Below, in pieces: positions 146 through 58,604 of a stretch of DNA of 64,000 bases. Under the pieces are notes generated by a model. The model ran no database searches. It was not told where the DNA came from and saw nothing but the letters and a program-made list of their open reading frames with translations. The position numbers and the translations under genes were made by a program. Origin of the DNA: a virus (Duplodnaviria; Heunggongvirae; Uroviricota; Caudoviricetes); IMG/VR virus record IMGVR_UViG_3300032167_005013; one strand, written 5' to 3'. The stretch's first letter is position 1. Each line of letters starts with the position of its first letter.

Positions 146-1330
146 TTATTCCAAATCAACAAATTTTTGTTTTATTTTGATAGAATAAAACAACCCTATT
201 GAGTAAAAAACAAATAATATCACAAAAAGAGCGTTATAGGATAGTCCCATTATATTGATAATGAAATTGGATAATTGATTACCCGACAATCCAGCAAAAG
301 CCCATGCTGATAATGTAAGCCCATGCAAGGTACTAATATTGCTCATCCCAAAATGACTTTGAATGAGTGTTGGTAGTGTACTGAACCCACCTCCATATCC
401 TGCATTGACAACACATAACATCATAGGAATTACAAGAGGTAAAAATGTTCCAAATACCAATGTTAATGAAGAAGATAAAAATATTACAACATAAACCCAT
501 GCTTTATTTTTCATGAAATCAGATGCTGTTGAATAACCAAATCTTCCTACCGTATTGAAAAATGCTGTTAATGTGGCAAGTATTCCAATATTTGTGAGAC
601 CTGAGTATAAACCAATGTTTTTTTCAAATGAAATCAATGCTAAACCACATGTAATATTAAGGTAAAAAACAAACCATATTTGACGATATGTTTTATTTTT
701 AAAAATTTTTAGTGTCTCCCTAAAATGTGTTTTCACAACCGGTTCCACCCACCCATCAGGCTTTTTTATACAATACGTTGCCAAACCCATAAGAATTATA
801 CTAACGCCTGATATTATACCTAATGTCCATTCAACTCCCATATTGAAATTACACCATTCAATGAACGGGGAAAATATGACTTTAGATAGGCCAAACCCCG
901 ATATTGCAATTCCTGTTGCAAGTCCTTTATGTTCTGAAAACCAAAGCATTAATGTTTTTACCGGGCTCAGATAACCAATACCCAAGCCAATGCCCATAAG
1001 ACAACCGTATGATAATATAAGACCTATTCTACTTTTCAAATATATTGCTATAATTGACAATACAAGACCTGATACAAAACATATAGTTGATAATAGTGAA
1101 GATTTTTTGACATTTTTTTCAACAAAACTCCCACCAAAAGCCGCTGACATACCTAAAAAGAAAATTGCCAACGAAAAACAAATCTCAATTGAAGCAACGC
1201 TACAGCCTATTGATGTTGCAATCTCATCTTTCAATAATGACCAACAATATACACTCCCAATACAAGAGTGTATTAATAAAGCAGGTATAGCACCTCTAAA
1301 CCATTTATTATTTAATATTTCTTTCCCCAT
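146..1330 (-). CDS. MFS transporter, oxalate/formate antiporter (OFA)-like
   Basis: ~12 hydrophobic segments; GSVYCWS start, GxGLGIGYLSPVKTLMLWF and YGGGFSTLP motifs typical of OFA-family MFS proteins. Confidence 0.85.
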   Translation of the reverse strand: MGKEILNNKWFRGAIPALLIHSCIGSVYCWSLLKDEIATSIGCSVASIEICFSLAIFFLGMSAAFGGSFVEKNVKKSSLLSTICFVSGLVLSIIAIYLKSRIGLILSYGCLMGIGLGIGYLSPVKTLMLWFSEHKGLATGIAISGFGLSKVIFSPFIEWCNFNMGVEWTLGIISGVSIILMGLATYCIKKPDGWVEPVVKTHFRETLKIFKNKTYRQIWFVFYLNITCGLALISFEKNIGLYSGLTNIGILATLTAFFNTVGRFGYSTASDFMKNKAWVYVVIFLSSSLTLVFGTFLPLVIPMMLCVVNAGYGGGFSTLPTLIQSHFGMSNISTLHGLTLSAWAFAGLSGNQLSNFIINIMGLSYNALFVILFVFYSIGLFYSIKIKQKFVDLE

Positions 1331-1947
1331 AGTATAAATCCATAAACACAGTTAATTGTCCAAAACACATATTGCGCCACCATGAACCAATTTTCTATTG
1401 ACACCCACATTGCAATGCATATTATATCTTGAATAAACCATAATATCCAATTTTCCTTATATCTTAACATCATCAAAATCTGTGCCAAAATACCTAAGAC
1501 AGTAGTGATGCTGTCAAACATAGGATGTGAATCCCCTAAATTATCAAGAATAGCCCATCCCATGATGGTTAATCCGACTACAACTCCAAATACCCCAAGT
1601 ATTGAATGGAAATCCAATGATTTTGTTTTTACAAGTTTTTCATCATCAAGGTTTTTCAACCATATGAAAATACCGGTAATCATTGTAAGAAAATAGAAAA
1701 GATTTTCAATGATTTTTCCATGAAGACCCTCCTGTACGCAAATTATCGTATATGTACTCATCTGTAGAAAAGACCAAAAGTAGTAAGTCATTTTCTTTTC
1801 ACTACACTGTACAACGGATATCATGCCAGCAATACCACTTACAAATGATAAAAAACTGTCCTTAGTGACTATATATACAATCACCTGAGACAACAAACCA
1901 CATGCAAGCAGCATCGAACCAAAGTCAATTTTCCTTCTTATCTCCAC
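1312..1947 (-). CDS. pnuC: PnuC/PnuT-family vitamin (nicotinamide riboside or thiamine) transporter
   Basis: 7-8 TM helices; DSITTVLGILAQILMMLRYKENWILW matches the Pnu-family signature. Confidence 0.85.
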   Translation of the reverse strand: MEIRRKIDFGSMLLACGLLSQVIVYIVTKDSFLSFVSGIAGMISVVQCSEKKMTYYFWSFLQMSTYTIICVQEGLHGKIIENLFYFLTMITGIFIWLKNLDDEKLVKTKSLDFHSILGVFGVVVGLTIMGWAILDNLGDSHPMFDSITTVLGILAQILMMLRYKENWILWFIQDIICIAMWVSIENWFMVAQYVFWTINCVYGFILWGKKY

Positions 1948-2171
1948 TTCTCAAAATCTTCCGGATATTCAACATAAACCCATGCCCAAACATCGTCAAT
2001 GATAAAATCAATATCGGGTTCGGGAAAATTATAAAAGGCTTTTCTTCCTTTTTCCTCAGAGTAAATACCATAATAGAACCAACTGCCGTCACGAGTAAAA
2101 AGAACCCGCTGCCCCTCATAAGGAACTTCTTCCTCAGTCAGGAACCATGTCAAATGTGTAACACTATTCAT
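1938..2171 (-). CDS. hypothetical protein
   Basis: ATG overlaps the upstream stop; fits operon packing. Confidence 0.55.
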   Translation of the reverse strand: MNSVTHLTWFLTEEEVPYEGQRVLFTRDGSWFYYGIYSEEKGRKAFYNFPEPDIDFIIDDVWAWVYVEYPEDFEKWR

Positions 2172-3249
2172 CGTTAAATTTTTTAATAAATTTCTCTGCT
2201 TTGTTTCGTTTTTCCATGTATTTTTTACGTCGGAATTCATTGGTTTTTTCAATGTTTTCCCTTATCTTGTCATTATGCTTCCTGCATTTCTCATAGGTAT
2301 TTAATTCTCTTGCCCAATCTTCAATCGAAGCCGCAGAAATATCTTTCTTTATTGCCTTGTACCCATCATAAGGTGAAAGAATGTCGACAGTATCATCAAT
2401 GATATATTCCCAATCCCATCCGTTATTGTTTGAAAATTTTATATTGAACCAATTATCTGTTTCGGATTCAACATTACCGTTCGCACGTGGATTTACAGCA
2501 AGTTCCTCAAGTGTATTTCCTATCCAACCCTGACCATTCCTATGATAACCGTTCATTGTAAGGAAATCAATAGACGATTTATCATTGAATTTATAACCTG
2601 TTTTCAATGTCAAGGCCTGTGAACTATTAAAACCGAAATCTCTAAAACCCGCTGTCTGCTGATGTCCTGCCCTTACATGTAATCCCCATCCATTCTGAGG
2701 AAGCATATTATATACTGCAGTTGCCTTAAATGAATTAAAACTACCGCCACCAAAATAAACATATGAGTCCTGTGGTTTATGAATATTGACCGATTCCAAA
2801 AGGATTCCTCCGGCCACACCCGCAATTCCATTATATGATGAAGCAGTACCCTTTTCTACCCTAACTGTCTGCATCGAAGACAAAAGGTCAGGACTGTTAG
2901 CAAAATAAGCACCATAGTCCTCAGCCTCATTCCATGGGCAACCATCAAGAGATACATTTATACGGGTTTGGTCAAGTCCTCTGATTCTAAAGTAACCGTA
3001 ACCAAATTCTGTACCATTGTCATTCAATGAAATAATTGATGGCATCTTACTAAAAACATTTGATGGTTCCTGTCCGTAATTGGTTTCAGTAAGCGTTTTA
3101 ATATCAACTACCGAACTTACTGTTGTTGAACTACTATAAAATGAAGATACGACAATTTCGTCAAGCGCCACAACCGTAGTATCTGATTCCTGTGCAAACG
3201 TAATAATCGCAATAAATGCAGAAATAAATGCCAAAATAAATTTTCTCAT
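2164..3249 (-). pseudogene. truncated TonB-dependent receptor (signal peptide, plug, start of barrel) fused to an unrelated C-terminus
   Basis: Signal peptide, LDEIVVSS TonB-box region, GYGYFRIRGLDQTRINVSLDG plug motif; barrel stops near aa 268 and a charged coiled tail follows. Confidence 0.75.
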
Positions 3250-4084: not shown

Positions 4085-4550
4085 ATAATTTCCAATATTC
4101 AATATCAATGTCCATATCCTTAAAAACTGCTTCAACCATGCTGCAGATTACCTGCCAATCAGCACCACCCCTATCAGAACTCATCTTCCAAGGAAATGCA
4201 ACTGATTTGATTCCGTTTTCGGCGCAATAGACACTCAATTTTTCCAACGCAACATATATTCCCTCATAGTTGGTATATCGTTTTCTATCATACCCATATT
4301 TTTCCTGGCCACAAAGGTTTGCTACCAATCTGTTATCATCACCTCCGGGGTTTGTTTTCACAATTTGGCACATACCCAATTTCATTAAACCTTTCTTACA
4401 CGCCTTATGATATTGTTCAGCAACACGTGGATACTTTTCCTTAATTGCCCTTGCAACCCCACTTCCAAATCCATCGGATGCATTTGTTTGATGAGCAATT
4501 ATATCTGCTTCTGAATCCAATAAACTGCCGTTATAAATATTCTCCTTCAT
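4083..4550 (-). CDS. macrodomain (ADP-ribose hydrolase-like) protein
   Basis: IIAHQTN..GFGSGVARAIK and VAFPWKMSSDRGGADW macrodomain motifs. Confidence 0.85.
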   Translation of the reverse strand: MKENIYNGSLLDSEADIIAHQTNASDGFGSGVARAIKEKYPRVAEQYHKACKKGLMKLGMCQIVKTNPGGDDNRLVANLCGQEKYGYDRKRYTNYEGIYVALEKLSVYCAENGIKSVAFPWKMSSDRGGADWQVICSMVEAVFKDMDIDIEYWKL

Positions 4551-4584
4551 ATTCTTAAATTTTTAATCATATCGCAAATATACA

Positions 4585-4612
4585 AAAAAGGTTTGGATTT
4601 GCCAAACCTTTT
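4585..4612 (-). terminator. hairpin terminator after thyX, overlapping a promoter for the macrodomain gene
   Basis: aaaaggtttgg-atttg-ccaaacctttt; adjacent gcaaatata is TATATTTGC on the minus strand. Confidence 0.6.
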
Positions 4613-13117: not shown

Positions 13118-14002
13118 TTAATAATTGTCATGTCTTTCAGCAAGTTTAATAAGATATTGTCCATATGGATTATTTTTCATACCCATACCAAGTTCCATAA
13201 GTTTCTCCCTATCAATCCAATCATTGTTGTAGGCAATCTCCTCAAGGCAAGCAATTTTCTGTCCCTGCCTCTTTTCAAGTACCTCGATATAAGTTGATGC
13301 CTCCGAGAGAGAATCATGTGTTCCGGTATCAAGCCAAGCAAAACCTCTCCCCAACACTTCAACATGAAGCCTCTCTTCTTCAAGATAATGCTGATTCACT
13401 GCAGTTATTTCAAGTTCGCCTCTTGCTGATGGCTTAATTGTCTTTGCTACTTCAACAACCGAATTTGGATAAAAATATAAACCGGGGACAGCATAATTTG
13501 ATTTTGGGTTAACCGGTTTCTCTTCAAGAGAAATGGCGAAAGCATTATCACTGAGTTCAACAACACCATATCTACTAGGGTCGTCAACATAATATCCGAA
13601 AATGGAGGCGTAGCCACAATCAACCCATAATTTCGCTGTTTCAAGATTATGAGTAAAACCCGCACCGTGAAAAACGTTATCGCCAAGAATAAGACAGACA
13701 TCATCATCACCGATGAACTCCTCGCCAATTATAAACGCCTGTGCAATTCCATCAGGAGACGGCTGTTCCGCATATTCAAAACGAACACCATAATCGCTTC
13801 CGTCGCCAAGGAGTCGTTTAAACCCCGGCAAATCCTGAGGCGTCGATATAATCAATATATCCTTAATACCCGCCAACATCAATACGGATATCGGATAATA
13901 GCAAGTTGGTTTGTCATAAATTGGAATTAACTGCTTAGATATTCCTTTGGTTATCGGGTGGAGTCTCGTTCCTGCCCCACCGCAGAGACATATTCCTTTC
14001 AT
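13118..14002 (-). CDS. rmlA: glucose-1-phosphate thymidylyltransferase
   Basis: [52 protein letters not shown]. Confidence 0.95.
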
Positions 14003-14008
14003 AATCAA

Positions 14009-14146: not shown

Positions 14147-15346
14147 TTAGAAGGCATTGCCTCGGTCATCCACAGTTAGGTTCTCCATAAGCGTATATTC
14201 GGTGCTACGGACACCTATTATTCTTTCTCCCTCTAATAAGATATTCATCGCTGCATTTATATCCCTGTCATGATGTTCGCCACATTGTGGACATGTCCAT
14301 TCCCTGTCACTTAACTTCAAATCATGTTTCTTATATCCACAAACTGAACATGTTTTACTGCTTGGATAGAATCTATCAACAAATATTACTTGTTTTCCGT
14401 TATTGAATGCTTTATCAACAAGTATTGATTTAAATCTATAAAATCCTACTTCTTGTATCGCTTTCGCTAACTTATGATTCTTTAACATTCCACTAACATT
14501 TAAGTCTTCCATGAAGATTACATCATAATATATAAGCAATTCATTTACTACACTATGAATATAATTCTCTTTCTGATTGTTTAACTTCTCAAATGCCTTT
14601 GCAAGTTTGATTCTTGCTTTATTTCTGTTATTAGAACCTTTTTGTTTCTTTGATAATTGATGTTGGAGTTTTGCTATCTTCTGTTCTTGTAATTTATAGA
14701 AATGTTTATTTTCAAACACTTCACCATCACTTGTAATTACAAAATCTTTAACTCCTAAGTCAATACCAACATGTTCATCAGTTAATTTGAATTTAACAAC
14801 TTCTTCATTTGGTAACTCAATTAAGATAGATAAGAAGAAATTACCACTCTTGGTTTTCGATAAGGTAGCACTTCTTATTCCATCACGATATTGTCTGAGT
14901 CTGTTGTGATTCAAATCAGAACATCTGAAACGAATATCTTTTAAAGGTTGTGTCAACGTTATTTTTCTTGTTTCAAATGTATTCTTCTTTGAAATCGCTT
15001 CAAGTGGGAATAACGCTGACTGTTTATCTTTTTTACTTTTGAATTTTGGGAAACCATTATGTTGTTTAAAGAACTTCTCATAAGCAGATAGCATCTGCCT
15101 TATTGACTGTTTCATTATCTTTGTGTTTTCTTCTTTCAACCATGAGTATTGTTCATCCTTCAATAGTTCATTATGAAAATACTTTGATAAATCAGTTAAA
15201 CCTAATGATTTCTTATTTTCAGTATATTCTTGTTGTTTACGAGCAAGTGTTTGATTATAAACAAAACGGTAACACCCCAATACTTTATTCAGTTTCAGTT
15301 CTTGCTCCTTATTTGGATATAATCTTATTTTAATTGCTCTTAACAT
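14147..15346 (-). CDS. tnpB: RNA-guided endonuclease TnpB
   Basis: KIRLYPN HTH, GIDLGVKD RuvC-I, MEDLNV RuvC-II, CSVCG/CPQCG zinc finger, DRDINAA RuvC-III. Confidence 0.95.
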   Translation of the reverse strand: MLRAIKIRLYPNKEQELKLNKVLGCYRFVYNQTLARKQQEYTENKKSLGLTDLSKYFHNELLKDEQYSWLKEENTKIMKQSIRQMLSAYEKFFKQHNGFPKFKSKKDKQSALFPLEAISKKNTFETRKITLTQPLKDIRFRCSDLNHNRLRQYRDGIRSATLSKTKSGNFFLSILIELPNEEVVKFKLTDEHVGIDLGVKDFVITSDGEVFENKHFYKLQEQKIAKLQHQLSKKQKGSNNRNKARIKLAKAFEKLNNQKENYIHSVVNELLIYYDVIFMEDLNVSGMLKNHKLAKAIQEVGFYRFKSILVDKAFNNGKQVIFVDRFYPSSKTCSVCGYKKHDLKLSDREWTCPQCGEHHDRDINAAMNILLEGERIIGVRSTEYTLMENLTVDDRGNAF

Positions 15347-16507: not shown

Positions 16508-16585
16508 GAAATATCCTCTATTATCTTTATACACCTGAGGCTCAATGATTTTAACCTCAGGTATTGCTATATCAATAACTAACAT
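16508..16585 (-). pseudogene. rmlC: N-terminal remnant of dTDP-4-dehydrorhamnose 3,5-epimerase
   Basis: MLVIDIAIPEVKIIEPQVYKDNRGYF is a classic RmlC start; ATG overlaps the rmlB stop. Confidence 0.8.
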
Positions 16586-17589
16586 TTTTCAAACATATCT
16601 TTAACAGTTATTTCAATTCCCTTTTCAAAATCCATTTCAGGCTTCCAACCCAGTTCCCTCTGCAATTTGGAACTGTCAATGGCATATCTGAAATCATGGC
16701 CGGGTCTGTCAGTGACATAAGTTATCAGGTTATTAGAATATCCTTCAGGATGTCCAAGAAACCTGTCGGTAACCTTAATCAACGTCCTTACCATATCAAT
16801 ATTAGTGACTTCATTATTTCCGCCGATGTTATATGTCTCTCCGGTTTTTCCTTTATGGAAAATCATGTCAATGGCACGGACATGGTCTCCCACATACAGC
16901 CAATCCCTTATATTTGTACCATCGCCATATACTGGAATCTTTTCATTGTTCACAATCTTGGTAATCACAAGGGGAATCAATTTTTCGGGATATTGGTTAG
17001 GGCCATAGTTGTTGGAACAGTTTGAAATAACAGTTGGTAAACCATATGTATCGTGATATGCTCTAACAAAATGGTCGGATGATGCCTTGGAAGCACTGTA
17101 TGGACTATGAGGCTCATATCTATTATCTTCTGTAAAAGGAACACCATCAGCATCCAATGCCCCATATACTTCATCAGTAGATACATGGTAGAACAATTTG
17201 CCATCAAAACCGTCAGGACATTCCTTCCAATAGGTAAGTGCAGCATGAAGAAGAGAAAGTGTTCCCATTACATTGGTCTTTGCAAATACAAACGGGTCCT
17301 TAATTGAATTGTCAACATGGGATTCCGCAGCAAGATGGATTACGCCACTCACCTTCCAATTTCTCATGAAAGCCAATATGTTGTCATAATCACAAATGTC
17401 TGTTTTAGAGAAGAAGAAATTATCTTTTCTCTTCACCTCCTTAAGGTTATTAAGATTTCCTGCATATGTCAGGTTATCAACAACCAATATATTATATTCA
17501 GGATATTTGTTAACAAAATAGTTAACAAGATTACTACCAATGAAACCGCAGCCACCGGTAATCATAATTGTCTTTCTATCTTTCGCCAT
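16579..17589 (-). CDS. rmlB: dTDP-glucose 4,6-dehydratase
   Basis: TGGCGFIGS, HLAAESHVDNSI, STDEVYG, YSASKAS, DRPGHDFRYAID. Confidence 0.95.
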   Translation of the reverse strand: MAKDRKTIMITGGCGFIGSNLVNYFVNKYPEYNILVVDNLTYAGNLNNLKEVKRKDNFFFSKTDICDYDNILAFMRNWKVSGVIHLAAESHVDNSIKDPFVFAKTNVMGTLSLLHAALTYWKECPDGFDGKLFYHVSTDEVYGALDADGVPFTEDNRYEPHSPYSASKASSDHFVRAYHDTYGLPTVISNCSNNYGPNQYPEKLIPLVITKIVNNEKIPVYGDGTNIRDWLYVGDHVRAIDMIFHKGKTGETYNIGGNNEVTNIDMVRTLIKVTDRFLGHPEGYSNNLITYVTDRPGHDFRYAIDSSKLQRELGWKPEMDFEKGIEITVKDMFEKC

Positions 17590-17592
17590 ATC

Positions 17593-18351
17593 TTAAAACT
17601 TGAATTTTCTTAACTGCGATTTATGGACGAAAACACGTTCAACCCTAACATTCTGTGCAACACCCATCTTAGTTGTGCCCATACCATCTTTTCTTGCTTT
17701 CTCCCATATACAGACAAAATCAGAAGGTGCTGAATATTCCGACACCATTATCTTATGCCCCTTATCACACATTCCACGGCACCACTCCCAAAACAGTTCA
17801 TTATCAAACCCGTTCTTATTGTATCCTTTAGTTGATGCATAAGGCGGGTCACAATAGATAAAAGAATTCTTAGGGTATTCCAATGTTCTATAATCACCAT
17901 GCACAAATGTACAACTATCAAGGCCAATGAAACTGTTTATATGTTTCAAAAGTCCTCGTCGTGCCTCAGCAATATGGTCCTCATTTCTGTTAGGATTAAA
18001 ATGTGCATATCCATTCCACCATCCACATCCGTTTGAACAGGCATTTCCCACGTAACCAAGGAGGGCTGAATCATATTTCCCACTATTGGTTAAACAATCT
18101 TCGCGCATTGCCTTGTATTCGGTTTCAGTAACTCTCTCAGGTATTTTAAATGTATTGTTTTGAATTGCTTTCCACATGGCAATTACATGTGGATTAATAT
18201 CCATTGCAATTTTATTGTCGTGGTTTATTACCGCAAATGAATTCATTCCACCGCCAAACGGCTCAATATAAGCCTGACACTCATCAAGATTTCTCTCAAT
18301 GAGTGCTTTTAAGTTTTTCATCAAACCTCTTTTACTTCCTTGATATCTCAT
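17593..18351 (-). CDS. DNA adenine methyltransferase (D12/Dam-like)
   Basis: RYQGSK, YIEPFGGG, YCDPPY, VSEY. Confidence 0.88.
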   Translation of the reverse strand: MRYQGSKRGLMKNLKALIERNLDECQAYIEPFGGGMNSFAVINHDNKIAMDINPHVIAMWKAIQNNTFKIPERVTETEYKAMREDCLTNSGKYDSALLGYVGNACSNGCGWWNGYAHFNPNRNEDHIAEARRGLLKHINSFIGLDSCTFVHGDYRTLEYPKNSFIYCDPPYASTKGYNKNGFDNELFWEWCRGMCDKGHKIMVSEYSAPSDFVCIWEKARKDGMGTTKMGVAQNVRVERVFVHKSQLRKFKF

Positions 18352-19145
18352 TAAATCTGTGGGATTATATTGCGGTCCTTAAAAAACGTTCTGTTTGTTT
18401 CATCATTAAGCGGAACAGCCGGGAATACCTCAGGGTTATGTCTTGTATATACATCACCATTATTGTTGGTAAATTGGGTTTCAACCCTATAGATAAATCT
18501 ACCGAACTTCCATCTATCAGGATACTTATCCCAATCCTCACCGTTATATTCCTTAAGTTTTTCAATCTGTTGGTCAACAAGCAATCCCATAAGTTCCTTG
18601 TGAGGAAAAAATGTCTGTGCTGTCTGCGCCTTAGAATTCCTGATACAGTCATTCTGTCTATACAACAACCATGCAACTACATCATTATAAGTTGGAACAT
18701 TCCACGCCTTGCAATCAAATTCATAAAGGCCAATCTTCTCAGCAATGACCTGAGAACCTTCAATACTTGTCCTCAATTCATACTGCATCATCAGATTATT
18801 AAACTTTGCAGTTGCCATAGATGCAACAATAGACAATATCTTGGTAAGCCTATATCCAAAAAATGAGTCTGTTGTTGGCGTTTCGAAATCAGTAATAACA
18901 AGAGTGATTTCATCTGACTGTGTATATGCAAATTTACAACCCTGAACATTCTTTACCAAGTATTTTGCTGTTTCATCCATCATATCAATGAAATCATCAT
19001 CAAAAGGCTTCGCAAACTTCTTCTTGATTTTGGAAGAAAAACTTCTTCCATCAAGCATTACCAACACATAAGAGTTAGGCATAAGCCTATAATCCGTAAG
19101 ACTACGAAAATACTCACATTTCTCTTTTAAACTATCAAACTGCAT
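18351..19145 (-). CDS. tRNA(His) guanylyltransferase Thg1-like protein
   Basis: LDGRSFS, KPFD, YTQSDEI, FDCKAW, YRQNDCIRNS. Confidence 0.92.
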   Translation of the reverse strand: MQFDSLKEKCEYFRSLTDYRLMPNSYVLVMLDGRSFSSKIKKKFAKPFDDDFIDMMDETAKYLVKNVQGCKFAYTQSDEITLVITDFETPTTDSFFGYRLTKILSIVASMATAKFNNLMMQYELRTSIEGSQVIAEKIGLYEFDCKAWNVPTYNDVVAWLLYRQNDCIRNSKAQTAQTFFPHKELMGLLVDQQIEKLKEYNGEDWDKYPDRWKFGRFIYRVETQFTNNNGDVYTRHNPEVFPAVPLNDETNRTFFKDRNIIPQI

Positions 19146-23837: not shown

Positions 23838-23929
23838 ATATTTTTCTTTGTTGCAAAGATAGGAATATTATTGGTAATAACCAAAAATATTCAGATAAAA
23901 TATCTATTTTTATACACACATAAAACAAT

Positions 23930-23963
23930 AAACGGGACCTGCTGTGAAGCACATCCCGTTTTT
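23930..23963 (-). terminator. repeated hairpin terminator closing the ncRNA unit
   Basis: aaacgggacctgctgtgaagcacatcccgttttt. Confidence 0.75.
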
Positions 23964-23971
23964 ATTATTTG

Positions 23972-24136
23972 TGAGCCATGAGGGGCTCGAACCCTCATCC
24001 CTTGCCCCCGGCAAGTGTTTTTTAATAGTGTTTCAGAAACGGCAAAACTCCATACCGAATTTCCGGACATTTCAATATTTGAAAACCATTCCCTCAGCAT
24101 ATGCTGATACCACCAACCAATTAAATCCAATGGCTC
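23972..24136 (-). ncRNA. 165-nt tRNA-like RNA with intact acceptor and T arms and a large internal insert
   Basis: GAGCCAT/ATGGCTC-A acceptor; GAGGG-TTCGAGC-CCCTC T arm; no canonical D or anticodon loop. Confidence 0.7.
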
Positions 24137-24148
24137 GAAGTTTTTTCG

Positions 24149-24229
24149 TGCGGATGAAGGGACTCGAACCCCCACGCCTTTCGGCAACAGGTTTTGAATC
24201 TGTCGTGGCTACCATTACACCACATCCGC
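24149..24229 (-). tRNA. tRNA-Leu(CAA), CCA not encoded
   Basis: GCGGATG/CATCCGC-A acceptor, TTCAAAA anticodon loop, long variable arm GCCGAAAGGC, TTCGAGT T loop. Confidence 0.9.
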
Positions 24230-24424
24230 ATAAAACTCCGATTAAAGCACCGCTCGGAGCAACACGTCCAACCAACGATTTGGCCAAGGGCTTGACTTAC
24301 ATGCACATAGATATGATGAACAGGGACTATAAGGGATTCTTACCATATAGTTTGAACATCCTATGACAAAGCCTTGTCGTTTCGTTTCCACCTTAACCGC
24401 GAATCCGGTGGACTAACTTTAGTC

Positions 24425-24748
24425 TTAAATATATGCCTCCCAATAGGTAACAACAAAATCAAGTGTGATTGAATCAACTTCCCCTTTTTCTGTTGTTATT
24501 CTTATTTTGAACGGACCGCAATGGGAATAGAAAGTATCTCCTTTATAATCTCCGAGTCTTCCTAACAACCCATATATCATATTTCTTGCGTCTTCTCTTA
24601 AATAGGTTTCATCAGGAATGCCCCTATTTTCAAGGTCACCTCCCATATAAACCTCCCAATTAAGAAGTTGCATTGTCTTCGCAACTTTATTGAAATCAAA
24701 ATTATCCATGATTTCATTAACAAGTTGCTGTGTTTTACTTATTTCCAT
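24425..24748 (-). CDS. hypothetical phage protein inside the ncRNA unit
   Basis: IMDNFDFNKVAKTMQLLNW motif. Confidence 0.75.
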   Translation of the reverse strand: MEISKTQQLVNEIMDNFDFNKVAKTMQLLNWEVYMGGDLENRGIPDETYLREDARNMIYGLLGRLGDYKGDTFYSHCGPFKIRITTEKGEVDSITLDFVVTYWEAYI

Positions 24749-24762
24749 ATTTTTTAAAATTG

Positions 24763-24880
24763 ATGTGATGGAGGGATTCGAACCCCCGGTCCCGGTTTAG
24801 CAAACAGTCTCAAACATTGCTGTTCATTTCCATAAGCAGGAAACTAAATTTACGGAGCATTACCACTTTGCTACATCACA
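24763..24880 (-). ncRNA. 118-nt tRNA-like RNA with a branched, enlarged anticodon arm
   Basis: TGTGATG/CATCACA acceptor, GCA-AAGTGGTAA-TGC D arm, GGGGG-TTCGAAT-CCCTC T arm; two hairpins replace the anticodon loop. Confidence 0.75.
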
Positions 24881-24893
24881 TGCCATAATTGAT

Positions 24894-25170
24894 AAAGGAT
24901 ATATGTGCTGTTACGCCAAAGCATTCTCGTATGTCCTACCGAAAATCGGGTTCATAACCCCGCCATACTGCCAACTGATGAGGAATAACGGTGGACTTTT
25001 ACCGAACCTCAAAAGGCAGACCAAACTCGAAGTTTGTCATGTTGTGGAATATTCCCTCACGGCACATCACCTACGGCTTTTCATCTCACGCAAGCATATC
25101 GCACTCACAGGGCACTTTCTGCGCACTCCTTAGAAAATGGCTGCTTCCAAGCCAATTTTTATATCCTTTT
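24894..25170 (-). ncRNA. structured RNA mimicking 23S rRNA H43/H44 (uL11-binding GTPase-associated centre) with ~200-nt insert
   Basis: TTGGCTTGGAAGCAGCCAT...TAAGGAG at the 5' end and GCGTAACAGCACA at the 3' end, closed by a 10-bp AAAGGATATA/TATATCCTTT helix. Confidence 0.75.
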
Positions 25171-25175
25171 CAAAT

Positions 25176-25209
25176 GCAAATATATTGATAATATATTGAA
25201 TTACCAAAT
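25176..25209 (-). promoter_or_regulatory. Bacteroidetes housekeeping promoter driving the ncRNA unit
   Basis: TTTG-N20-TATATTTGC ending a few nt before the RNA 5' end. Confidence 0.8.
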
Positions 25210-45273: not shown

Positions 45274-46434
45274 TTAATTCTGTTTTACAACCCAAAGGCT
45301 ATGATATTCATTATGTTCAGGAAATTCAAAATTCTGAACCATATTGTAAAATACATTCTCAGGTATCTGTCCCTTACGTCTCTTGATATTATCCTTAAAC
45401 GTAGGTGCCTCAATATACCAATAGTTCCAACGGATTTTCTTTCCTCCTAAGAAACCTTTCAATTCCTTTCTTCTCTTGGCAGATAGATTAATGTTATTCA
45501 ATATAACAGGACGATTATTTTCTATTGCCTCAAGAAGCCTTTCATTAAAAATCTTGGTAACTTTATTCTCCTGTTTGTTTGTTCCAACAATCTTTTCATC
45601 TGCAGAACAATAACCCAATTCCACCCTGATATCATCTCTTGACAACACCACAGGGTTATCCATCTTATGAATGAGTGTATTCTCAATGAAAGTATTCTTG
45701 CCTGACCCAGGAAGCCCAATCATCACATTGACCTCAACGGCATCGTCAGCAAATTTAGGAAGACTACCACTGCAACCGTAAGGACTTTCACCAATCTTGA
45801 ACATATTCAGCCATGAAATGTTGTTCAATTCTTCACCGATGATTAGGAATCTTTCAAGAATCTTCTTGTCTTCCTCTTTAGTAGAACAACTTGGTTTCTG
45901 AATTGCACCCTCAAGGTCACACATCTTCAGCCTGTATATATCATAATAAGGGAGAGTTTTTGTAATTTTATCAACAACATCCCTTGGCTTCTTGGCTTTT
46001 TCGAAGAAGAGAGGCTCCATATGCCACTTAACCATATGAACAATATACTCACGGTCATAAAGAGGCCAATCCCACAGCATTTCACGTGCAAGTTTTGAAC
46101 CTACATTTTCATGACCATAAGAGTGCCAATTACCATCTTTTTCTCCCTTGAAAGTCGTCTTAGGCTTTCCAACATCATGGAAAAGTGCTGAGAGCATAAA
46201 AAGTCTCTTCTCGTGAAGGTTCTTCTCAGTATCTTCTTCCATAAATCCCAAAGCATGCTTGCACACAAGACGGGTATGTTCCAATGTATTTCCCTCACTA
46301 TGCCAACGAGGATTCTGCATAGTATTCTCCATATCTCTAAAATGTGGAAGTTTCAAAATGAAATCCCAATTCAAGTTCAAAGTATTATCAATAAAAAAAT
46401 CTTCAAGTACCATATTATTCTTTTCCAAATACAT
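45274..46434 (-). CDS. HD-domain phosphohydrolase fused to a P-loop polynucleotide kinase
   Basis: QNPRWHSEG..LEHT, LFHDVGK, GHE; GLPGSGK, SRDDIR. Confidence 0.85.
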   Translation of the reverse strand: MYLEKNNMVLEDFFIDNTLNLNWDFILKLPHFRDMENTMQNPRWHSEGNTLEHTRLVCKHALGFMEEDTEKNLHEKRLFMLSALFHDVGKPKTTFKGEKDGNWHSYGHENVGSKLAREMLWDWPLYDREYIVHMVKWHMEPLFFEKAKKPRDVVDKITKTLPYYDIYRLKMCDLEGAIQKPSCSTKEEDKKILERFLIIGEELNNISWLNMFKIGESPYGCSGSLPKFADDAVEVNVMIGLPGSGKNTFIENTLIHKMDNPVVLSRDDIRVELGYCSADEKIVGTNKQENKVTKIFNERLLEAIENNRPVILNNINLSAKRRKELKGFLGGKKIRWNYWYIEAPTFKDNIKRRKGQIPENVFYNMVQNFEFPEHNEYHSLWVVKQN

Positions 46435-57257: not shown

Positions 57258-57291
57258 TTTGTTTGTTTGGCATGATATTTGTATATTTGCA
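57258..57291 (+). promoter_or_regulatory. housekeeping promoter with nested sigma54-like box
   Basis: TTTG-tttgtttggcatgatatttg-TATATTTGC. Confidence 0.7.
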
Positions 57292-57314
57292 TCGTAGATT
57301 TTAAAGTAAAAAAT

Positions 57315-58604
57315 ATGCTATATACTGATTTCTTAAAACACAAAGTTTTTACGATTCTCCATGACGTCGCAAAGGAACTTAACGTTCACGCATATGTTGT
57401 TGGGGGATATGTTAGAGATTGTTTTCTTGGTATAGAAAACAAAGATATTGACATTGTTGTTGAAGGTTCAGGAATTGAATTTTCAGCGGCTTTTGCGGAA
57501 AAAGTTAATGAAAAACATCATTTCTATGAAAATTATGGAACGGCAATGGTCCGTTATAAAGGAATTGAAGTCGAATTCGTTGGAGCGAGAAAAGAAATGT
57601 ATGAGAGGGGGTCACGAAATCCGATTGTTGAAGACGGCACGCTTCTTGATGACCTTCTAAGAAGAGATTTTACCATTAATGCAATGGCTTTATCTCTCAA
57701 TGATGATTTCGGCGCCCTTGTTGACCCTTTTGACGGGAAAGCCGACCTTGAAAAAAGAATTATAAGAACTCCAGGTGGTATCCCTAATGTTACATTTTCT
57801 GATGACCCCCTCAGAATATACAGGGGTATACGTTTTGTTGCAAAACTTTCTAAAGAAGGTGAATTATTCAAAATTGATGACAATACATGGGAGGGAATGA
57901 AAAACAATACAAGTAGAATCTACATTCTTACTCAGGAACGCATCACTGAAGAGATTGATAAGATTCTGAGTTATGATAACTCAGCCCTCGGTTTGGAATT
58001 GATTAATCTTCTTGGTATTTGGGATTTAACGTTTGAATATGACGGGCGTACAATGGTAAAAATTGGGATGGTTGCTAAAATCGATGAAGTTCTTGATAAA
58101 TATCAAAACAAAAAACTCCTAAAATGGGCAGTATTACTCGGTAAAGGCGCATTTACTCTTGAAAAACTTAAGGACCGTGTTCAAGGAATGAGATTACCTA
58201 ATTCCACTTACAATTTCATTGAAAAGGTTGTGACAAATAGAACTGTATTCACAGATAAGCAACCGCTTAGTGTTTTCAGAAAATTTGTTGCTGAAAATGG
58301 TCTTGCAATATATGATATATATAATTATTGGTTTTGTCATGAGCTTTATTATGCAGATGAAACTAATGTACCTTTAATTTTTGAAAAATATAAAAGAATT
58401 AGATTCTTGTTTAGTTCATTAACGCAATTTATTGATTTTAAACTTCCGTTAAACGGAAATGTAATTAGTGAATATATCGGGGTTCCACCGGGTCCACAAC
58501 TTGGTTTGATTCTTAATAGTATTAAAGAAGGCATTTTCGATGGTAGAATCGAAAATACTGTGGATGGCGTTTATTGGTGGTTGTTTAACACATTTAAAAA
58601 CTAA
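57315..58604 (+). CDS. cca: CCA-adding tRNA nucleotidyltransferase (class II)
   Basis: VGGYVRD, DIDIVV, ARKEMY..GSRNP, DLLRRDFTINAMA, FSDDPLR, ERITEE. Confidence 0.9.
   Translation: MLYTDFLKHKVFTILHDVAKELNVHAYVVGGYVRDCFLGIENKDIDIVVEGSGIEFSAAFAEKVNEKHHFYENYGTAMVRYKGIEVEFVGARKEMYERGSRNPIVEDGTLLDDLLRRDFTINAMALSLNDDFGALVDPFDGKADLEKRIIRTPGGIPNVTFSDDPLRIYRGIRFVAKLSKEGELFKIDDNTWEGMKNNTSRIYILTQERITEEIDKILSYDNSALGLELINLLGIWDLTFEYDGRTMVKIGMVAKIDEVLDKYQNKKLLKWAVLLGKGAFTLEKLKDRVQGMRLPNSTYNFIEKVVTNRTVFTDKQPLSVFRKFVAENGLAIYDIYNYWFCHELYYADETNVPLIFEKYKRIRFLFSSLTQFIDFKLPLNGNVISEYIGVPPGPQLGLILNSIKEGIFDGRIENTVDGVYWWLFNTFKN

Follow-up and report, generated by a model that had tools for sequence, protein, structure and literature searches.

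A free-standing mimic of the 23S rRNA GTPase-associated centre and tRNA-shaped RNAs in a probable stable-RNA operon of a large phage

A 64,000-nucleotide (nt) stretch of viral DNA (IMG/VR record IMGVR_UViG_3300032167_005013, hereafter the window) raises the question of what a phage might do with a short series of RNA genes that resemble pieces of the translation machinery. Tail-fibre and other phage genes identify the window as part of a large phage, of Bacteroidota type. On its minus strand, bounded by one promoter and one terminator, lie a mimic of the GTPase-associated centre (GAC) of 23S ribosomal RNA (rRNA), a 118-nt RNA shaped like a transfer RNA (tRNA), an open reading frame (ORF) for a protein of 107 amino acids, a spacer of about 190 nt, a tRNA-Leu(CAA) and a 165-nt tRNA-derived RNA. 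An earlier reading of the sequence, the first-pass annotation, had taken these elements for a single system of rRNA and tRNA decoys. The answer favoured here, with confidence a little better than even, is that this part of the genome represents a reduced form of the phage tRNA region: a stable-RNA operon in which tRNA-shaped elements act as punctuation or scaffold and the GAC RNA acts off the ribosome; the unit is better described in these terms than as one dedicated system. Phage tRNA-region operons are already known as a kind, on which this unit is a variation. Its most unusual component is the GAC-mimic RNA; other conserved components that call for explanation are the tRNA-scaffold RNAs, with their cargo of 58 nt, and the 190-nt RNA.

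The GAC-mimic RNA occupies about 277 nt (24894-25170, minus strand). Its 5' half (25125-25170) and 3' half (24894-24920) together rebuild the end of helix 42 (H42), H43 and H44 of 23S rRNA (E. coli 1051-1108), the domain bound by uL11 and thiostrepton. The H43 loop box lies at 25139-25153, and the H43 loop matches Salmonella 23S rRNA at 18 of 19 nt. The 3' box (TTTGGCGTAACAGCACA) lies at 24904-24920, and the H44 loop reads GCGUAAYAGC. An H42-type closing helix (GGATATA/TATATCC) joins the ends, and the tertiary pair 1082:1086 is C:G. The phage copy differs from the ribosomal domain in being a free-standing gene, in carrying an insert in the 5' strand of H44 (60-350 nt and variable across the family of such RNAs described below), and in having, in the lineage of the window, an A:U pair at 1059:1079 and G at 1067. 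In the window the insert is a conserved, multi-helix segment of about 200 nt (24921-25124). An Rfam scan of the window gave no large-subunit (LSU) rRNA match and no Rfam family over the GAC RNA. The possibility that it is a piece of a full-length 23S gene was rejected on the missing LSU match and on the finding that, outside the boxes, only chance-level matches to Salmonella 23S rRNA occur. The insert was likewise rejected as a further 23S segment, with only chance-level matches of 8-11 nt.

Conservation in related contigs identifies the GAC RNA as the most constrained part of the unit. In the closest relative compared, a contig 97% identical (L130), 0 of 275 positions are changed, against 3-5% in the rest of the aligned 1.25 kb and 15-21% in the short linkers; by our own arithmetic, the chance of finding no change is about 2e-5. 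Identity to three further relatives (L122, L127 and L125) is 87-89%, compared with 69-80% for the flanking genes, and an unrelated phage with 23 tRNAs (L036/L077) carries a GAC RNA that is 74.5% identical over 267 nt, insert included. Across an alignment of five lineages, 21 of 77 predicted pairs are compensated. The 23S-GAC mimic perceived in the first-pass annotation is therefore genuine and under strong selection, as shown by the unchanged sequence in L130, the 1082:1086 pair and the covariation of the family to which it belongs.

That family is a large one. At least 118 IMG/VR contigs contain the 17-nt H43 box. Among the matches listed, which represent 100 distinct sequences, the 5' half (E. 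coli 1051-1088) is common and divergence begins directly past GAGU, so that these are not 23S genes; at least 64 of the 100 go on, after a further 60-400 nt, to the 3' half (YUUUGGCGUAAYAGCACA and the closing strand). Family structure was judged by regular-expression boxes and pair counts, the 5' box being GGCUURGAAGCAGCCAU then ...UAARGAGU and the 3' box YUUUGGCGUAAYAGCACA at most 450 nt downstream. The window has the former at 25125-25153 and the latter 238 nt past the start of the 5' box. For 23 short members, 90% of cells pair in the proposed structure, as opposed to 31-49% with the 3' partners slid; the covariation score is 0.54 versus 0.15, with 0 of 500 shuffles reaching the observed value, and 16 pairs are changed on both sides. 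The closing helix, the lower stem of H43 and the stem at the base of the insert all covary among members (L036, for instance, closes with GCUGGA/UCUGGC), and so does the tertiary pair 1082:1086, which is U:A in 37, C:G in 27 and A:U in 3 of 75 members. Twenty GAC loci were free of LSU matches, and no other Rfam family covered the element in them. No family in Rfam 15 covers the RNA, and the literature searched contains no description of a phage GAC or rRNA mimic. Both boxes occur together at only 28 loci among 185,579 species genomes, which makes the family strongly phage-associated; in the same genomes the 3' box, searched by itself, has 106 matches, versus about 139 expected by chance (own arithmetic).

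Most members of the family lie within phage tRNA arrays and share the strand of the tRNAs, and 30 of the 62 with defined ends have a tRNA or tRNA-like gene no more than 40 nt away on that strand. Unannotated copies are also present in cultured phages, including GAP32, CBB, XacN1, pf16, Serratia BF and others. The GAP32 copy (JN882285.1, 289501-289795; L119) occupies an intergenic gap between protein genes, and that of XacN1 (AP018399.1, about 150244-150606; L120) lies right past a gene for a 2'-5' RNA ligase; neither has an adjacent tRNA. Several individual members show additional features. An extra hairpin stands between 1078 and 1079 of the H43 3' strand in L048, L068, L085, L104, L051 and L111, and a second H44-like box, AAUAGCYCAC, lies within the main insert in L015 and L110. 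In L024, the GAC-mimic RNA (4481-4601) shares its phage tRNA array with a GOLLD RNA (164.8 bits, 685-1176, minus strand). Near the GAC RNA of L036 (12120-12340 and 11440-11620, minus strand) are a gene that resembles tRNA-Gly(UCC) but has an aberrant T loop and is missed by ARAGORN, a truncated 5' half of a tRNA and further odd tRNA-like elements, and a small zinc-ribbon-like ORF follows directly past the GAC RNA.

In the window, the GAC RNA stands first behind a Bacteroidota-type promoter (25177-25208, minus strand; TTTG at -33, N20 and TATATTTG at -7), found by pattern search and kept in alignment in all relatives. The pattern TTTG-N18-22-TANNTTTG is observed 20 times in the window, compared with 3.95 expected. 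Transcription is expected to start a few nt ahead of the closing helix of the GAC RNA. At the far end lies an intrinsic terminator (23921-23970, minus strand) made of an A-tract, a 28-nt hairpin and a U-tract; the hairpin folds at -22.5 kcal/mol, a stability (z = -6.5) that none of 200 shuffles attains. The next promoter (23854-23885, minus strand; TTTG-N20-TATCTTTG), predicted to serve a downstream HAD-like gene, marks the end of the unit, and a pattern scan of the window finds no consensus Bacteroidota-type promoter between this copy and that at 25177-25208. The arrangement proposed in the first-pass annotation, with one consensus promoter, one strong terminator and no consensus promoter inside, thus holds as far as motifs go, and from the placement of the two bounds co-transcription is inferred. 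Sequence reading, ARAGORN, Rfam and an arm scan also agree with its inventory, since every element that it named is present on the minus strand in the place assigned. The arm scan, which looked for a T stem of 5 bp closed by a TTCRANN loop and, after it, an acceptor with all 7 bp paired, finds exactly three places on both strands of the window: the 118-nt RNA, the tRNA-Leu and the 165-nt RNA (located by the scan at 23973-24136). Direct reading confirms that CCA follows none of them. The tRNA-Leu(CAA) (24148-24229, minus strand) is a canonical class II tRNA that scores 50.3 bits against Rfam; it is the sole ARAGORN tRNA of the window and is present in all relatives.

The 118-nt RNA (24763-24880, minus strand) has the shape of a tRNA but is of a different sort. 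It scores 41.3 bits against the Rfam tRNA family RF00005 (gathering score 29), with acceptor, D and T arms present; its anticodon-loop region measures 58 nt instead of 11. Only 3 bp remain of the anticodon stem, short of the 5-bp stem with 7-nt loop of a decoding tRNA. The 58-nt domain forms two hairpins, one of them UUUCC/GGAAA, and contains an invariant ACAGCA. Although this region is the fastest-evolving segment of the unit, at 57-63% identity in relatives, the acceptor, the T stem and the first hairpin of the insert (P1) are kept by compensatory changes. The orthologous acceptors are UGUGAUG/CAUCACA, UGUGGGG/CCCCACA and GGUGGUU/AACCACC, and the insert hairpin varies as UUUCC/GGAAA, UUUUC/GGAAA and GUUUU/AAAAA beside an unchanged ACAGCA. 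The first-pass annotation had named random decay of the odd RNAs in relatives as the outcome that would tell against it; the 118-nt RNA is instead maintained by compensatory change. The relative L125 contains a second gene of the same design (2324-2442, 39.5 bits), in which exactly 58 nt replace the loop region of a different tRNA body. A model of the 118-nt RNA searched in 99 other phage loci matched only ordinary tRNAs (at most 50 bits) and did not find the 58-nt cargo there.

These features suggest a mechanism for the operon. One transcript would probably run from the -33/-7 promoter to the terminator at 23921-23970. The 118-nt RNA, the tRNA-Leu and the 165-nt RNA each keep an acceptor that can stack on the T arm, as RNase P, RNase Z and the CCA-adding enzyme would need, and this retention argues that the tRNA-shaped elements probably function as scaffolds or as punctuation for RNase P/Z. 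The unconserved 13-nt linker between the GAC RNA and the 118-nt RNA (24881-24893, minus strand), 2 of whose 13 positions differ even from the 97% relative, would be the expected region of RNase P cleavage. A cut at the 5' end of the 118-nt RNA would leave the GAC RNA with a defined 3' end, and a cut at the 5' end of the tRNA-Leu would free the ORF messenger RNA (mRNA), the 190-nt RNA, or both. The 118-nt RNA itself would be a natural tRNA scaffold that displays the two-hairpin, 58-nt domain in the place of the anticodon loop. Processing of the tRNA type is plausible for the unit, given that 30 of 62 family members abut tRNA-type genes; the cleavage sites, CCA addition and all molecular targets are predictions of this model. 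The freed GAC RNA would fold like the uL11-binding, factor-docking domain of 23S rRNA and most likely act away from the ribosome; its partner would be uL11, or else a factor or toxin of the host or of a competitor that targets the domain. H44 of the GAC is the target of a known ADP-ribosylating toxin (PMC8661411), which makes it conceivable, by analogy, that the RNA is a decoy for such a GAC-directed toxin.

Parts of this arrangement have precedents. The small stable RNAs of T4 (RNAC and RNAD) are processed from tRNA-cluster transcripts. The window resembles T4 in having a phage tRNA cluster that would also give non-tRNA stable RNAs; T4 has eight tRNAs, whereas the unit described here combines one canonical tRNA with an rRNA-domain mimic and tRNA-shaped RNAs that lack an anticodon loop. 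The tRNA-like elements of MALAT1-mascRNA and the tRNA punctuation of mitochondria show that such structures can act as processing signals, in eukaryotic or organellar settings; comparable here are the positions of the 118-nt RNA, 13 nt past the GAC RNA, and of the tRNA-Leu, 1 nt past the 190-nt RNA, at which cleavage would be expected. An engineered tRNA scaffold in which cargo RNA replaces the anticodon loop was reportedly devised by Ponchon and Dardel in 2007, and the 118-nt RNA, with intact acceptor, D and T arms around a structured 58-nt cargo, would be a natural example. Ribosomal-protein leaders such as the L10 leader are partial rRNA mimics that act in cis ahead of ribosomal-protein genes. 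They share with the phage GAC RNA the imitation, by an RNA outside the ribosome, of a ribosomal-protein site of rRNA; the phage RNA differs in being a near-exact copy and a stand-alone gene, usually among tRNA genes. The tRNAs of T5, which counter tRNA-targeting defences such as PARIS or retron effectors, are also phage tRNA-type RNAs that are of use against host effectors and not for codon supply alone; they are functional decoding tRNAs, unlike the 118-nt and 165-nt RNAs with their missing anticodon loops. The T4 tRNA region is a precedent in that it, too, yields two small RNAs whose role is unknown (PMC3014915).

The significance of the unit follows from these comparisons. The usual interpretation of phage tRNA clusters is codon supply or spares against anticodon nucleases, and this operon places a near-exact, free-standing copy of the uL11 and GTPase-docking site, along with tRNA bodies that carry a foreign domain, beside an ordinary tRNA. 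The presence of the GAC family in cultured phages (those named above) makes the viral gain from imitation of a ribosomal site directly testable. The unit would also be a compact model for dissecting both processing, through tRNA punctuation, and function, and would offer a natural example of a tRNA scaffold.

Several observations weigh against the stable-RNA operon. The GAC subfamily of the window has G at 1067 where 23S rRNA has A, and the insert replaces 1089/1090, a change that could alter the binding of uL11 or of factors. The T stem is weakened in the L125 gene that is orthologous by position to the 118-nt RNA, and the 165-nt RNA, missing from L122, L127 and L125, may be a remnant without a role. 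The GAC members of GAP32 and XacN1 sit between protein genes without a nearby tRNA, from which it follows that tRNA punctuation is not obligatory. Finally, the pattern scan for promoters covered one sigma type only.

Could the whole unit nevertheless be one dedicated RNA system for counter-defence or against the stringent response, its cooperating decoys serviced by the CCA enzyme and the Thg1-like protein? The clustering of the RNAs under one promoter speaks for such a system, as does the fact that the tRNA-shaped RNAs, with no anticodon, cannot decode. The two enzymes are indeed encoded in the window, as the first-pass annotation had it, and Pfam confirms both: a CCA-adding enzyme of the poly(A) polymerase family (57279-58604, plus strand; PolyA_pol, 6.4e-28, and an RNA-binding domain) and a Thg1-like protein (18351-19145, minus strand; Thg1, 2.6e-26). 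They lie outside the unit, however, at distances of 33 kb and 5 kb, respectively. The existence of toxins directed at the GAC (PMC8661411) is a further point in favour.

Synteny also favours a dedicated system, up to a point. The contigs of the relatives were reached through protein-database homologues of the 107-amino-acid protein; searches with three neighbouring proteins in viral contigs found no close relatives. In these relatives the order promoter, GAC RNA, tRNA-shaped RNA, ORF, spacer and tRNA-Leu(CAA) is kept, with a core identity of 79-97%. This synteny extends through the tRNA-Leu and breaks right past it. In L125, an extra 1.6 kb of mostly noncoding sequence lies between the GAC RNA and the ORF (1340-3000); it includes at least four long tRNA-like genes (2184-2316, 2324-2442, 2620-2784 and 2791-2985) and a GC-richer stretch of about 350 nt (1640-2000) with no Rfam match. 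Beyond close relatives the parts are not found together. GAC RNAs are seen among ordinary tRNA arrays or by themselves, the 58-nt domain was not found in the 99 other phage loci, and the 165-nt RNA is missing from the relatives themselves.

The 107-amino-acid ORF (24425-24748, minus strand) adds to the case against a dedicated system. It is a real gene, because substitutions relative to the related contigs concentrate at third codon positions, and six homologous clusters share 57-91% identity. An AlphaFold2 model of the protein (predicted local distance difference test score, pLDDT, 85) has no match in the PDB at E<=0.001 and no usable match in the ESM Atlas; its fold matches only uncharacterised phage proteins, with template-modelling (TM) scores of 0.72-0.76. 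Among distant homologues at 39 metagenome loci, none lies near a GAC box and only one near a tRNA, so the place of the ORF in the unit looks incidental. With GAC RNAs elsewhere lacking these partners, ORF homologues unlinked to RNA genes and the 165-nt RNA unconserved, the single decoy system of the first-pass annotation is not demonstrated, and a dedicated system is considered unlikely. A narrower version assigns separate targets to the decoys. The free GAC RNA would soak up an effector aimed at uL11 or H44, or would divert uL11 and so blunt RelA signalling, and the scaffold RNAs would soak up effectors of the acceptor and T arm while the CCA enzyme and the Thg1-like protein keep RNA ends intact. 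This version, too, is regarded as doubtful.

The spacer (24230-24424, minus strand), which ends 1 nt before the 5' end of the tRNA-Leu, is conserved yet carries frame-breaking indels and is for this reason noncoding; it is treated here, on its sequence features, as a conserved noncoding RNA or leader. Its identity is 86-88% in L122 and L127, where that of the ORF is 77-79%, and 74% in L125. It consists of near-invariant blocks and a compensated 3' hairpin, and its single-sequence fold is unexceptional (z = -1.0). The spacer has no Rfam match, and its most conserved motif has 0 matches in IMG/VR. A collinear likeness to H41/H42 of 23S rRNA (a 17-mer with E = 12, plus AGGAUGUU) raised the possibility of a second rRNA mimic, which was rejected because L125 does not retain the resembling letters and the pairing is predicted to be different.

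A further alternative holds that only the GAC RNA and the tRNA-Leu matter and that the tRNA-shaped RNAs, the 165-nt one above all, are decaying genes or recombination debris. The 165-nt RNA (23972-24136, minus strand) combines a perfect 7-bp acceptor with a T arm; in place of the D arm it has about 105 nt, and the hairpin at the anticodon position has a 5-nt loop. The tRNA model gives it just 17.8 bits, over the 3' 79 nt only and below the gathering threshold; ARAGORN makes no call, and the RNA searched alone matches no Rfam family. It was rejected as a transfer-messenger RNA, for lack of an ARAGORN or Rfam call and on its acceptor, GAGCCAU/AUGGCUC, in which 3:70 is G:C and not G3:U70, and no convincing homology links it to a 165-nt element of L125. 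It lies at the synteny break, and L122, L127 and L125 have a non-homologous gene 27-100 nt past the tRNA-Leu. The 165-nt RNA is therefore outside the conserved core and lineage-specific. The rapid evolution of the 118-nt region and the broken tRNA halves near the GAC RNA of L036 would also fit decay. Against this alternative, the 118-nt and 165-nt RNAs both keep perfect 7-bp acceptors and T arms, and the 118-nt orthologues hold their stems by compensation and retain the insert hairpin and ACAGCA. The 118-nt RNA, moreover, differs from that of L130 at 2 of 118 positions, compared with 15-21% in the flanking linkers. Debris is thus an improbable account of the tRNA-shaped RNAs as a group.

Less probable still is that the 118-nt RNA, its orthologues and the other long tRNA-like genes of phage arrays are intron-bearing tRNA genes whose products are spliced to decoders. 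Phage tRNA-array loci (L001-L118) do contain genes, 100-260 nt long, in which canonical acceptor, D and T arms accompany an insert of 45-110 nt in or next to the anticodon loop; examples are L092 190-319, L113 1763-1894, L056 1687-1831 and L014 5002-5119, all on the minus strand, and the inserts of L056 and L092 have a GGGGCAGUACCAAA motif in common. Such insert-bearing genes, with canonical D arms, are common in the arrays (about 75, versus 4 in a reversed-sequence control) and are missed by standard ARAGORN; in its intron mode, the program calls introns of 41-73 nt. The anticodons so called differ among orthologues of the 118-nt RNA (Ser GCU, Pro GGG and Gly CCC), however, and the intron positions are non-canonical, so that these genes are read as tRNA bodies with a cargo domain and not as spliced decoders. 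With a 3-bp anticodon stem left, no excision gives a 7-nt loop with U33, and the insert has its own conserved hairpin and ACAGCA. A group I intron was rejected, as the insert adds only 47 nt, far under the group I size (at least 200 nt), and the intron families give no match at E<=10. Splicing to decoders is accordingly judged very unlikely.

Almost no weight can be given to the idea that the GAC element is a cis-acting leader that binds a ribosomal protein and regulates the downstream 107-amino-acid gene, for although the element lies upstream of the ORF on the same strand, and rRNA mimicry by mRNA leaders is an established mechanism, a tRNA-shaped RNA stands between the two, the ORF is unrelated to ribosomal-protein genes and has homologues elsewhere without a GAC element, most family members lie between tRNA genes and not ahead of ORFs, and the element matches none of the ribosomal-protein leader families of Rfam.

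Other genes of the window lie outside the stable-RNA operon. An ORF at 45274-46434 (minus strand) encodes an HD domain and a P-loop kinase domain (AAA_33/KTI12-like), which is the make-up of RNA end-healing enzymes and may bear on tRNA repair with the Thg1-like and CCA enzymes. The phage also has a deoxythymidine diphosphate (dTDP)-sugar gene region, with an RmlA-like gene at 13118-14008 and an RmlB-like gene at 16579-17589, inside which lies a gene for a TnpB/Cas12f-like OrfB of the IS605 family (14147-15346, minus strand).

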